DNA of 64,000 bases. Source: Octopus vulgaris. Taxonomy: Eukaryota. The first letter of the stretch is position 1, and each line of letters opens with the position of its first letter. This document shows, piece after piece, positions 305-56,623 of the stretch. The translations under genes were made by a program, and so were the position numbers. Location: NCBI GenBank assembly GCA_951406725.2, contig OX597834.1, positions 310,001 to 374,000 on the forward strand, given 5' to 3'. The notes below the pieces were generated by a model, which ran no database searches, was not told where the DNA came from, and worked only from the letters and a program-made list of their open reading frames with translations.

Positions 305-324
305 GTGAAACAGTTGTTAAGGAA
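305..324 (-). promoter_or_regulatory. U12 branch point TTCCTTAAC and AC 3' splice site
   Basis: Minus strand reads TTCCTTAAC-AACTGTTTCAC|GCCATTT. The branch adenosines lie about 12-13 nt from the acceptor, typical U12 geometry with no long polypyrimidine tract. Confidence 0.94.
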
Positions 325-2064
325 ATAATGGTTTATACACATGGAACATTGAATAACAGGAAGATGACTGTTGTTATTGGAAATATATAAAATAATAATG
401 AATTAAAATAGAATATAAATAATATATAATAAAGATAGGGATATAAATATATTAATAAAAAAAAATAATTAGAATATATTTATCAGCTGTTTTAGTGAAG
501 GTGTGTGTAAATCAAAGAATTAATGACATAAACCATGAATGAGAGAAAACAGACCAAGCTGAAGACATGGACCAAAATTAGAGAAACATATTTCTGTGAG
601 AAAATATTGAAGTTAAATGCCAGGTGACAAAGCCATACCGAAGAAAGCATTATTAAAAATTTGACAGGGTTATATAATGTTTAATCTTAAAAACAAATGT
701 GATTGAAAGTTATACAAATGTTTGGCATATATGACCATACATTATGGTGAACCAGGAAATAATCAATAGAAAAAAAATTGAGGAAAATATGAATAATGAT
801 TTATGATTAAGTGAGGGAGGAAATTTTATTGAAGATTGCTATAAACCTGTCTGATACATGCCAAAATATTTTCACAGAATTCAGAGTATCTCACACCATC
901 TTTCCCAATAAGTCAAATTCCTAATAGGAATGGGGGAGTGTTCTTCAAGACAAGGGTTCCTGGCCTTCTTCCATTAACCTCTGCTAACATTTTCAAAGTA
1001 AATTTCCTCTCATTGTTTTGCTTAGTAATTAAAGTTTACATTTCTAACCATGATAAAACAACTAACAAAGAGGAAATTTAAAATAACTTTTTCAACATTT
1101 TTAAGTTCAAGTAACAATAAAAATAACACACAACAATGTTATTTCACTAATGAATGAATGAATTATAAACAGACACCAAAGCCAAACAGTCTTTGAATTC
1201 GTTGGCTTCATTAACAACACAGTAATTAACAAATATATATCACAAATCAGCACACACAAAATCTTTTTAAGTTGAGTAATTCCCTGTTACTTAGTACTCA
1301 GAGTAGCACCACATTTACTCATGAGTATACTGTGAAAAATTAAATAGAAAATGTCAAGGTCAAACTGAAGGTTAGAGAGTATTATACTGGGGATGGGGTG
1401 GGGGTAAATAAATAGGGAGAAGAGAAACTATATTTATAAAGTGGCTGATGATGATAATGATGATGATGATGATGACTGTAACAAATGTCAGTGGGTCTTT
1501 GTCAGCCTCATTTTCATATTGAAACCTGACCCTGTCCAGATATAAAATGAGGTCAAGAGTATTGGAGTTGGGTTAAAAAGGAGTTGATGGGGGGTGGGTG
1601 GGTCTTGCATCGAAGATATGTCTAAAATGGCCAAAGACACACTCGTCAAGGAGAACCAAAAGATGAGAAAGACTAAAGGGTTTATTACTTACTTGAAGGT
1701 TGGACATAAAAATATAGGGTACTAACCCTCTTATCAGTTTGGAACATATTTTCTATCGATTCTGGAAACCTGGGGACATAGATTAACCCTTTGGAAGCAG
1801 AATTTGGAAGACAATAAGACCATAATTCTGTGTGTGTGTGTGTGTGTATAACAGAATGAACTAAGCAGAGAAAGGGCACACACAAGGATGGAAAGTGTTG
1901 CTGAAGAGATCACAGATATATGACAAAAGATTTCTGGACAATGGACACGAGAATAAGAACAGTAATAAGTGAGTGAAGAATAAATATATAGTGTGTGTGT
2001 TTATTTGGCAACGCGGGAAAAAAAAATGATGCAGGAGTGGCTGCATGGTAAGAAGCTTGCTTCC

Positions 2065-4084
2065 GGTTGAACAGTGAAGACATCGAGCTTTGAGCTCCGT
2101 CCTAAAAGAAAAAAGAACAAAAACAGTGTTTTTCACGCACCTGTTGAAGTCGTCACGCTGTTATGCAGCTGGCGAAAGTTGAACTGAAAGGCACTCTACC
2201 GTTAGGTAAGACTTTTTGCTTTTTGAGTCCAGTAGGATTTGTTGCCTGTTGGTTTTATTTTTATGAACAGGTAAGTATTCCTTACTGGATTCGGAGCTTT
2301 TTGTCTGCCTTGCGGTGGACACATGTGTGTTGTCTCACATAATTGTGAGAAATTGTATTTCAAAATTTTGTGCCCATGTGGATTAAAAGGATTGGCCAGG
2401 AGTACCTTTCGGCTGAAAATTTATTTCTTTGCCTGGATTTGAATTCTCTTTTCACAGCTATCATTTATTTTAAAAAAAAAACTTTATTTGAACTGTAATT
2501 TTTTTTTTTCTTCCCTTCTGTTGTGTCTTCTTTTGTTTTTTTGTGTATCTTTCTTTATTTGAAAATGTATTGACGAACTTTTATTTTGAACTTTTATTTT
2601 TAAAAAAATGGCAAAGGAAATATTAGTGGGGGAATTAACACCTCCCAAATCATGGCTAAAAGAGCTCGAAAGGAAGACGGTGCTGTTGAGGACTTATTCA
2701 AAGTCGCTCGATACCATAACCGTCTTCCCGAAAGCCACAATTTTGAAAGAGCTGGCAGAATACATGCCAGCTATTAAATTTATTTCATGGGGAGTCAAAT
2801 TTGCAATGGTCTGGTTGCTATTTAACGCCCCCAAAGAAGCTTGCGATTTTGCAAGCCGGCCGATCGAGGGGAAGGAAATAATGTTTCTTCCCAGTTATTG
2901 TGGGAAGAAGTTAACGAGGGCTTGGATCTGCGGCTTGCCACCCGGAATTGAGCCCAAGTGGATAGAGGACTCTATCCGCCGGGGTCTGGGTGGTAGCAGT
3001 ACCAAGCTGCTCAACATAAAAATTTTGCCTGCGGCTGATTGGGAGGGGTCAAAAGCTGTGTTGACCCTATGGACCCAATCAGCTGAAAGTCTGGTTTTCC
3101 CAGGTTTTTTGAGGATGGCCGGGTCTAGGTATCCGGTGATGCTCGAGGGACGCCCCCCCCCCCCCAAGTGTCACCTGTGCCTGTAGACCGGCCACATCAA
3201 GAAAAACTGCCCCAAGGACCAAAATAGGATCCTGGAGCAGTTAACAGAGGAACCACTCCCTGCTCCCTCAATGGAGGGAGAGAAGGAGGAGGATGTCTAG
3301 GAGGTGGAAACCTCCTCGAAAAAACGAAAGCGAAAGGTGGGCAAAGAACCCGAGAGATGCGGGAGAAAAGGAGGACCTGCTGGACACAGCAAGGGAACAC
3401 CACCCTCCTGTGGCCCAAGGGAAAAAGAAAAGAAAAAAGAAAAACGGGACATTGCCAGCGGGTTGTGACATGCTGCCGGCGTGTCCCGATTTTCCTTTGG
3501 TGGGTGTGCTGCTGGAGGAGGAATTTTTGGTCCTCTTCCACAAGGGAGGAACCTTGCAAAATGAAATCAAAAAATTGATAGGAAGTGCCGGTGGGAGGGG
3601 CTTCTGTCCTACACGGAGAACCCTGAGTGGCCTTCGCAGGTGGCTGCGGAGGTCATATGGGAAAACGATCTGTGTAGGATAACGAACTACTTCCCGAAGG
3701 ACTCCTTCAGATATATGTTGAAACCTTTAAGTTCGGAATGGACCAGGTGCTTCGATGAAGCAAGGAGCCTGGCCGGGCGAAAAATTGAAGAGGTGTATTA
3801 CCTCAAAAAGAGACTAAAAATGCAAAAAGTGAGAGGATTATTGCCTCGTGTTTGTGTTTTATTTTTAATTTTGAACTGTGTAAGAGGTTTATTGCCTCAT
3901 TGTGCTTTAAAAAATAAAAAAGAAAAAAAAGAACAATGTTTTTGAGAAGCGAAAGTCGGCGGGCGCTTTTCGTCTTCTCCCATCCTTATCATCCTTATAT
4001 CATCATCGTTCATCCCATTAATGTCTCTGTCTAGCCCTCAAGCTTCTCTCTGTGTGCTGCCCTTGTGGCAAATTTAATGAAATA
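2065..4084 (+). mobile_element. 2.0-kb non-LTR-type insertion carrying only an ORF1/gag-like gene (L1/Tx1-like), nested in a SINE
   Basis: Flanked by AAGAAGCTTGCTTCC (2050-2064) and AAGAAGCTTGCTTTC (4085-4099). Removing it restores a SINE head. GC/CpG-richer than the flanks, AATAAA at the 3' end, no reverse transcriptase motifs seen. Confidence 0.72.
2608..3945 (+). pseudogene. Disrupted ORF1-like protein with CCHC zinc knuckle
   Basis: The 192-aa ORF ends ...EGRPPPPKCHLCL*; read-through gives CHLCL*TGHIKKNC = CX2CX4HX4C. Lys/Glu-rich low-complexity sequence follows, then further stop-interrupted coding-like sequence to 3945. Confidence 0.68.
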
Positions 4085-55890: not shown

Positions 55891-56614
55891 ATATGAGCGT
55901 CCAATTACACTATACTTGTTCCACATCCTCGCATTTTTGTTATTTCTCTTTGTGTTTTCATTTTTGGATTAACTTCGTAAATATATACTCCAACCGCCTT
56001 CGTTTTTTGTTTATTTTCGTAAACTTTCCCTTTATATATGTATATACATACACACACTCACACACACACACACACACATATATATATATTAAAATATACC
56101 CATATATATGTAATCATATATACACGCAGATGAGTTTGTATGTGTGTGTGTGTGTGTGTGTGTGTGTGTGCTGTCCCCCCCTCCCTGTTTCACTCATAAT
56201 GAACTGATGTTCCCAAATCAATTGAAGCAGACAACATGCCCAAGGTGTCCTGCACAAGAATCAAAAGACCAGGCAGTTTTGAAAACATAGGCACACAACT
56301 GTGCCTCACACTATTATATCTTCATCATTTAATGTCCGTGTTCCAAGTTGGCATGGCTTGGATGGGTGGACGGGATGTGTTAGCCACGATGCCCCAACGT
56401 CAGCTTTTGCAGGTTTCCTACAGGTGGACCCCCTTCTTGCCGATATGCAGGTGTGTGTGTGTGTGTGTGTGTTTACACGTGTTTAAAGCAGGCAAATGAG
56501 AAGAGAGTGAAAGCGGACAGGGAAAGGTGCAATGTGACAACATAAACAAAAGAAAGACTTTAATTACATCAAATATAATTAGTGAGTTTACGAAATGTAA
56601 TAAAAGCTGTAAAT

Positions 56615-56623
56615 AAAGGATAT
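56615..56623 (-). promoter_or_regulatory. U12 5' splice site (U11 binding) ATATCCTTT
   Basis: Plus-strand aaaggatat is the reverse complement of the exact U12 donor consensus and lies directly after the codons TGG GG. Confidence 0.94.

Follow-up and report, generated by a model that had tools for sequence, protein, structure and literature searches.

The window analyzed here, a 64,000-nt stretch of the Octopus vulgaris genome (contig OX597834.1, positions 310,001 to 374,000), carries on its minus strand two coding exons of a voltage-gated calcium channel gene separated by a phase-2 AT-AC intron of 56,319 nt (305..56623) that occupies the D1S1 (pre-IS1) position and is uninterrupted by assembly gaps. 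The upstream coding exon (56624..56818) is preceded by a U2-type AG acceptor, contains an ATG at 56817, and encodes the end of the cytoplasmic N-terminus (MNTFSAD...KIIIEW), its 3′ end comprising KIIIEW and the first two nucleotides of a split Gly codon. The downstream exon (199..304), which encodes IS1 and is followed by a GTAAGT donor at 198, completes the split Gly codon so that the frame is kept across the junction as EWGPFEY, the Cav2 IS1 sequence. An earlier sequence-only reading had proposed that a U12 donor, branch site and AC acceptor join these exons as EWGPFEY, and the splice signals, the frame and the contig joins described below concur. The two-exon layout was likewise right at 56624 and 304, with a small correction that sets the far end of the downstream exon at 199.

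The 5′ splice site ATATCCTTT (56615..56623, minus strand) matches the U12 donor consensus RTATCCTTT from +1 to +9 and is the sole perfect match on the intron strand. The branch site TTCCTTAAC (316..324) is the sole perfect TTCCTTRAY with a correctly spaced acceptor on that strand: its second A is 12 nt before the intron end, within the ~10–20 nt expected for the class, and the AC 3′ splice site (305..306) is devoid of a polypyrimidine tract. Eight first-order simulations of the same length as the intron produced means of 0.9 perfect donors and 0.9 perfect branch and acceptor sets, and a single motif by itself is therefore not rare. Nevertheless, the single perfect donor and the single perfect branch and acceptor set on the intron strand coincide with the two exon edges, and thus the placement of the motifs is non-random. 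An assembly artefact was rejected as no N was present in the window, in 100-kb flanks, or in the Cav1 and Cav3 introns discussed below; within the 215-kb U2 intron located upstream, this check extended as far as its final 108 kb.

Sequences that connect 56624 directly to 304, the search for which had been suggested as a check, were recovered among contigs in all four runs inspected (four studies, two organisms). The contigs, which also cover the upstream exon in each run, depart from the genome at 56624 and continue with 30 letters identical to positions 275–304. The runs consist of assembled contigs whose RNA origin is presumed, no holding record being catalogued as RNA, and the joined form is not in the genome. 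The direct join indicates that the AT-AC junction is unshifted and that no constitutive exon lies between the two exons. Hidden constitutive exons and a shifted GT-AG junction, either of which would have overturned the earlier interpretation, thereby are ruled out, and tblastn comparison of spliced Cav2 relatives with the intron produced no match inside it. Run X10 yielded one 258-nt intronic contig (56175–56432) that may be pre-mRNA or DNA. The interval 56451–56611 was without contig cover in four runs, which says nothing on retention because rare forms drop out of contigs and repeats in that interval had been skipped; contigs give neither retention levels nor splicing order.

Sequence comparison identifies the gene as Cav2 alpha-1, in agreement with the initial assignment. 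The best PDB matches of the IS1 exon were Cav2.3, Cav2.2 and Cav2.1 (E ~1e-13) compared to 7e-4 for Cav1.1, and the close relative P0001, whose exons follow in order downstream, scored 689–751 bits on Cav2 compared to ≤533 on Cav1. The Cav1 and Cav3 genes were located separately, on C3 and C6, and each possesses a phase-2 AT-AC intron at the same place. A read-through signature of the donor, EWGY, also was evident in a chiton, four gastropods and one annelid. The D1S1 position is a conserved U12 AT-AC site across Cav1, Cav2, Cav3 and Nav genes (PMC6259924; PMC3634016), which upholds the view that the position is ancient. The octopus Cav2 intron is the already known D1S1 AT-AC intron, a textbook feature, and the conceptual weight of its presence is modest. 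A literature search, conducted partly by title, found no paper on this intron in cephalopods. Wu and Krainer (1999) is cited in the literature in connection with the D1S1 AT-AC intron of Cav and Nav genes.

The upstream exon has a colinear 5′ extension (56819..56852, minus strand) of at least 34 nt, the upper end of which was not seen. The extension has contig cover in all four runs and, in runs X4 and X5, one contig spans the extension, the exon and the AT-AC junction. No in-frame upstream ORF was found, and a Met is present at the position of the 56817 ATG in 10 of 11 aligned proteins. The extension is likely to be an alternative first exon or 5′ UTR from which a short isoform starts at ATG 56817, and the AT-AC intron likely would be intron 1 of this short-N-terminus form. 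Public gene models commonly mistreat the junction, as had been predicted for software confined to GT-AG introns: among 18 relatives, a set restricted to 113–2000 aa and hence biased to fragments, only four have the junction right, whereas 12 continue past the donor into EWGY and two exit the exon at a cryptic site before it. The public model P0024 uses a cryptic GT near 56749 to exit the upstream exon and contains likely false exons at 45856..45930 (minus strand) and 23482–23571. The AT-AC intron causes this calcium channel, of the presynaptic type and from an animal that serves as a major model in neuroscience, to be split or mis-spliced in several public gene models of molluscs. The right junction and the two N-terminal forms are relevant to cloning, proteomics and RNA-editing work.

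AT-AC ends alone are no proof of processing by the minor spliceosome: intron 21 of SCN4A is a U2-type AT-AC intron, and voltage-gated channel genes do contain introns of this type. That the octopus intron is similarly processed by the major spliceosome has a negligible probability, however, as U2-type AT-AC introns have G at +5 whereas the octopus donor has C within a perfect U12 consensus, and the perfect branch site is not accompanied by a pyrimidine tract. The full set of signals argues for the U12 class. A genome search for snRNAs at Rfam cut-offs produced five matches to U11, two of three U12 matches above the cut-off, and 43 U6atac matches above it. The donor is predicted to form a 7-bp duplex with the genome's U11 and a 6-bp duplex with U6atac, and the branch site is complementary to the branch-recognition region of U12. 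These pairings suggest that the intron likely is removed by the minor spliceosome. In such a scheme, U11 would pair with the donor and U12 with the branch site, U6atac would take the place of U11 for catalysis, and the two exons would be defined over the long intron by U1 at the downstream GTAAGT in concert with the cap or the upstream U2 acceptor. Cav2 output would require minor spliceosome activity both for the AT-AC intron and for a second minor intron located outside the window, a GT-AG intron of 1,195 nt with donor GTATCCTTC and branch site TCCTTAAC; the other Cav genes would share this requirement. In Cav genes, a GT-AG intron of the U12 class is located in domain II S6 as their second minor intron. 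As its two minor introns differ greatly in length, the octopus gene offers an internal control, supplied by nature, for the effects of length.

The sequence-only reading also described the intron as filled with repeats and hairpins. Such elements are present, but enrichment is not borne out. A degenerate (TA)n array of 2.8 kb (53097..55885) lies 0.7 kb past the donor; among the inverted-repeat pairs listed, the 25 longest arise from it, and none of these pairs the intron ends with each other. A 308-nt hairpin that is 94% self-complementary (5061..5368) is likely to be a MITE-like repeat as a copy also occurs in the Cav1 region. Similar hairpins are located at 42010–42376, 20708–20989, 33686–33790 and 5404–5504, and a hairpin repeat at 4293..4720 belongs to a common family represented by 9, 9 and 32 loci across the three regions compared. 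Inverted repeats cover 8.5% of the AT-AC intron compared to 12.7% and 15.2% of two overlapping stretches of equal length in the upstream U2 intron, and 1.9% of the exon-dense downstream region. The AT-AC intron contained 29 inverted pairs, while the upstream U2 intron gave counts of 30 and 36 and the two Cav1 intron halves counts of 33 and 31; hairpin enrichment was rejected. A broken DDE transposase remnant (39673..40380, plus strand) is antisense to Cav2 and matches PF01359 (Transposase_1; E 3e-21) at 40048–40377. No Rfam match reached the gathering score in the intron. A nested protein gene was rejected: from a pool of 75 ORFs of ≥110 aa, six were scanned with Pfam and produced one transposase remnant and one sub-threshold match, and most of the remainder are microsatellite translations.

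The same final junction would result if the intron were removed in steps, by way of recursive or nested sites inside it or by a U2/U12 twintron route. Recursive splicing is frequent in long neuronal introns (PMC13149111), and the octopus intron includes a weak AC/ATATCCTT site at 30759 and, near 7521, a site resembling a U2 ratchet. However, the former lacks a good branch sequence (2–3 mismatches) and the latter is incompatible with an AT donor. Internal near-matches did not exceed those in simulations (18 donors vs. 22; 22 branch and acceptor sets vs. 28), and, in sequence scans, neither the Cav1 nor the Cav3 intron showed a convincing recursive site, while a relay site supported by a good branch sequence was lacking from all three introns. 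Stepwise removal accordingly is considered highly improbable.

The earlier interpretation regarded the intron as very large; that its size is special is not supported by comparisons within the genome or beyond it. The U2 intron just upstream of exon 56818–56624 is 215,061 nt, approximately four times longer than the AT-AC intron. Giant D1S1 introns also came to light in the paralogs: the predicted lengths, 106,456 nt in Cav1 and 206,518 nt in Cav3, are two to four times that in Cav2. The predicted Cav1 junction joins C3:150,259,833 to 150,153,376, and that of Cav3 joins C6:93,354,717 to 93,561,236. The Cav3 donor was absent from the first 200 kb upstream and was located at 206.5 kb with the aid of a relative's exon. 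The giant sizes are very probably real. Only 10 of 770 listed human minor introns exceed 56 kb by a by-eye count, which places this length in the upper tail, and 207 kb surpasses all but one entry. Minor introns are listed with lengths of 50,719 nt in human CACNA1A, 45,546 nt in the mouse counterpart, 26,466 nt in CACNA1E and 836 nt in CACNA1B (MIDB; supplement to PMC6717393). The CACNA1B value signifies that the size of the D1S1 intron is not conserved. We take the human CACNA1A entry to be D1S1 intron 1 from its 5′-most place, as the table provides coordinates and length only. Minor-intron length follows genome size and major-intron length, and neuronal genes expand by 5′-biased intron growth, with the expression of long genes noted for Octopus bimaculoides as well (PMC7222433). 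Overall, we favor with good confidence an intron with the AT-AC ends as found that is excised in one step by the minor spliceosome (U11/U12/U4atac/U6atac/U5) and whose size is a by-product of repeat-driven 5′ growth. The 56 kb would be a side effect of such growth in a long neuronal gene, with no built-in rate control.

It had been suggested instead that an intron so large and so full of hairpins may act as a rate-limiting step for the channel, as U12 introns are spliced slowly and can limit expression. In this rival reading, a selected switch tuned by U6atac levels would cap or time Cav2 mRNA through slow splicing over 56 kb. Knock-down of U6atac in rat cardiomyocytes lowers Cacna1c mRNA, Cav1.2 protein and current (PMC8767276), but this denotes dependence and not natural rate limitation. 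The intron is long in octopus Cav1, Cav2 and Cav3 and in human CACNA1A, 1E, 1H and 1I, yet the CACNA1B copy is just 836 nt. Although the AT-AC intron would come first in the short isoform, X4 and X5 each provide a single contig in which it is removed and the upstream U2 acceptor is unused. Moreover, 467 mouse minor introns show no retention compared to 150 retained in all replicates of a tissue, and the retained introns are significantly shorter (PMC6717393), contrary to the proposed limitation. With CACNA1A at 50.7 kb, longer paralogous introns, and a U2 flank that is four times longer and at least as hairpin-rich, a selected switch is unlikely. A shared minor-spliceosome step that, together with a promoter switch, co-regulates calcium-channel output in cephalopod neurons through three giant relay-free introns is given a similarly small chance; if true, the minor spliceosome would bring together, in a single step, ends that are as much as 207 kb apart. 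Regulatory use of the giant introns is doubtful. The 106-kb and 207-kb introns, if confirmed by reads, would imply that no tight upper limit applies to the length of minor introns and, with the 1.2-kb U12 intron of the Cav2 gene, form a natural series for the effect of length on minor splicing.

The octopus introns are alike in position before IS1, donor and branch consensus, and AT-AC ends to the D1S1 introns described for Cav1, Cav2, Cav3, Nav1 and Nav2 (Fux et al., 2018, PMC6259924; PMC3634016), and differ only in their lengths of 56, 106 and 207 kb. Human CACNA1A also is a Cav2 gene, has an intron of near-equal length, and possesses a second, short minor intron, as in octopus Cav2 in which the GT-AG U12 intron is short. 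The donor of mouse Cacna1a is listed as ATATCCTTT, identical to that of octopus Cav2, and the second-intron 5′ sites of mammalian Cacna1a, Cacna1b and Cacna1e are listed as ACTGTATCCTT where the octopus counterpart is GTATCCTTC. In view of the short CACNA1B intron, our analysis suggests that the likeness in size between octopus Cav2 and CACNA1A is likely to be convergent. Unlike in CACNA1A, the AT-AC intron is preceded in the long isoform of the octopus gene by an additional coding exon and the U2 intron of 215 kb.

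The Cav2 intron at the pre-IS1 (D1S1) position occupies 305-56623 of the reverse strand and comprises 56,319 nt with no ambiguous bases. On the same strand, translation of the upstream exon (56818-56624) gives MNTFSAD...KYAKIIIEW and leaves two bases over, with the U12-type donor ATATCCTTT immediately after 56624. The U12 branch site TTCCTTAAC is at 324-316 (reverse strand) with the AC end of the intron downstream at 306-305, after which the downstream exon (304-199, reverse strand) completes a Gly codon, continues in the IS1 reading and has GTAAGT at its end. A motif scan of the intron revealed one perfect donor and one perfect branch site plus acceptor. 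As eight simulations at the same length and make-up gave a chance expectation of ~0.9 for each motif, the evidence resides in the placement of these single signals exactly at the exon edges and not in mere occurrence of either motif.

Splicing at these edges was examined in assembled contigs from sequencing runs. When the downstream exon was used as query, 24 runs were listed across seven studies, and 20 of them contain the exon; none is recorded as RNA. Four runs, one per study and from two organisms, were aligned to 56175-56852. In all four a contig spans the upstream exon, departs from the genome at 56624 and continues with 30 letters identical to 275-304. Because the contigs run straight across, there is neither a shifted junction nor a constitutive exon between the two exons, either of which would have refuted the sequence-only reading. 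The contigs denote the presence of a form and not its level. The observation of an AT-AC intron with U12 signals that joins two exons in frame is confirmed by the sequence and backed by transcript-like contigs. One run (X10) also yielded a 258-nt contig of intronic sequence, which may derive from pre-mRNA or from DNA. A 35-45-nt repeat at 56318-56365 is common to many unrelated contigs in all four runs and is a common transcribed repeat element. The upstream exon has eight listed differences in one organism and none listed in the three runs from the other; contigs from these three runs, which drop minority variants, gave no sign of RNA editing in 56624-56818.

The genome possesses matches to the minor-spliceosome RNAs in Rfam searches: five to U11, two of three over the cut-off for U12, and 43 of 46 scored candidates over the cut-off for U6atac. 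Duplexes with the donor of 7 bp for U11 and 6 bp for U6atac, and of 8 bp between U12 and the branch region, were predicted without a shuffle control. U2-type AT-AC splicing of the intron has no sequence support and is improbable in the extreme. The 5′ splice-site-binding stretch of octopus U11 has T where human U11 has C, and an extra pair with the donor A at +3 is predicted. The 43 U6atac matches are spread over many contigs; eight copies examined are almost complete, T-rich at their ends and unrelated in their flanks, with repeat-like sequence after several, and are likely to be dispersed pseudogenes.

The IS1 exon is far more similar to human Cav2.1-2.3 than to Cav1.1, and P0001, a close spliced relative, scored 689-751 bits on Cav2 compared to ≤533 on Cav1. 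Over the next 90 kb, the exons of P0001 and those of an oyster Cav2 align in order. Further downstream is a second U12 intron of the GT-AG subtype (1,195 nt; about 269,885-268,691 on the reverse strand of C21, the Cav2 contig), through which the genomic translation reads as FGNCIL. Two exons at window -83225..-83331 and -89514..-89597 (C21 about 226.7 kb and 220.4 kb) match one oyster Cav2 segment, residues about 1311-1349 in domain IV, and are a candidate mutually exclusive pair.

The expectation that gene predictors mis-annotate this N-terminus was borne out. A homolog search restricted to 113-2000 aa, and hence fragment-biased, produced 25 proteins of which 18 were retrieved: four were joined correctly, in 12 the translation continues past the donor as EWGY, and two exited the exon early. 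The read-through models include named ones from a chiton, four gastropods and an annelid, and so double as evidence for the same donor in those species. P0024, a database model labelled Octopus vulgaris, is identical to the upstream exon across 22 residues, exits it at a cryptic GT and incorporates intronic pieces 45930-45856 and 23571-23482.

The intron had been described as filled with repeats and hairpins. These are present, and the intron carries a 2.8-kb (TA)n array and a transposase remnant as well as many microsatellites and several long hairpins, but they are not in excess: with tandem repeats masked, inverted repeats cover 8.5% of the intron versus 12.7% and 15.2% of two overlapping stretches of the same length from the upstream U2 intron, 8.6% and 6.9% of the Cav1 intron, and 1.9% of the downstream exon-dense region. 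The Cav2 intron therefore looks like any large octopus intron examined. No Rfam family matched within it. A GC-rich block (2590-3945, forward strand) with several overlapping ORFs is possibly a retroelement remnant; the two ORFs scanned had no Pfam match. Stepwise removal of the intron is similarly without sequence support, as scans found no convincing recursive site in the Cav2, Cav1 or Cav3 AT-AC introns, and is very unlikely.

Paralogous introns were sought in the same genome with the exon peptide and tight patterns. AT-AC introns with donor ATATCCTTT, branch site TTCCTTAAC and an AC end, all free of N, were predicted in Cav1 (contig C3:150,259,832-150,153,377, reverse strand; 106,456 nt) and Cav3 (contig C6:93,354,718-93,561,235, forward strand; 206,518 nt), and the Cav3 join reproduces ITWPWFE of protein P0026. 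The Cav1 upstream exon includes an LSSAWATALAA stretch that resembles the NSCaTE motif in a passage of PMC3634016. In the MIDB supplement, minor introns of 50,719 nt in human CACNA1A, 45,546 nt in its mouse counterpart, 26,466 nt in CACNA1E and 836 nt in CACNA1B are entered (PMC6717393, file 8). Counted by eye among 770 human entries there, 10 are longer than 56,319 nt and FHIT alone is longer than 106 kb; the predicted Cav3 intron is longer than all but one. The longer predicted paralogs and the CACNA1A lengths thus contradict the idea that 56 kb is special: among minor introns at large the Cav2 intron falls in the upper tail, within its gene family its length is ordinary, and it is the shortest of the three. 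The most interesting residue is outside the window, in the predicted 106-kb and 207-kb introns of Cav1 and Cav3.

Two 5′ forms of Cav2 were apparent. X10 shows the upstream exon joined to an exon whose end is at C21:581,880; the U2-type GT-AG intron between them measures 215,061 nt (C21:581,879-366,819, reverse strand) and is gap-free over its first 107 kb. The AG acceptor on the upstream exon implies one or more additional exons in the long isoform. In all four runs contigs also run on colinearly beyond the exon's 5′ end, to 56852 or further, with 274-1,814 further letters in their records, and in runs X4 and X5 a single contig extends from this extension through the AT-AC junction. The extension is likely an alternative first exon or promoter with a short N-terminus from the Met at 56817, which 10 of 11 aligned proteins share, and the U12 intron would then be the first intron. 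An alternative is removal of the U12 intron ahead of its U2 neighbor. Neither favors the U12 step as a bottleneck. A rate-limiting U12 switch for Cav2, as proposed in the sequence-only reading, is unlikely: Cav1.2 was lowered by U6atac knock-down in cardiomyocytes (PMC8767276, in part), but this effect denotes dependence. The sequence-only interpretation as a whole is partly supported. An ancient U12 intron would have been enlarged through repeat insertion and would be removed by ordinary U12 splicing in one step, which is the most likely explanation with good confidence. Published work fits passive growth: minor introns lengthen with genome size and with the length of major introns (passages of PMC7367187; PMC10639083), and neuronal genes gain intron length near 5′ ends (passage of PMC7222433).

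No cephalopod report of the D1S1 AT-AC intron was found in the literature by title or passage. As the PMC10639083 survey, in the part consulted, covers Octopus and Sepia species, the octopus intron may already be catalogued in its database. The position is ancient as had been proposed: a passage of PMC6259924, whose aligned species include pond snail, presents D1S1 as a U12 AT-AC site that nearly every Cav and Nav channel conserves, Cav1 N-termini likewise have a conserved U12 AT-AC site (passage of PMC3634016), and every human gene for a Cav or Nav alpha subunit is noted to have a minor intron (passage of PMC6865273). The octopus Cav2 intron is another instance of this known site.
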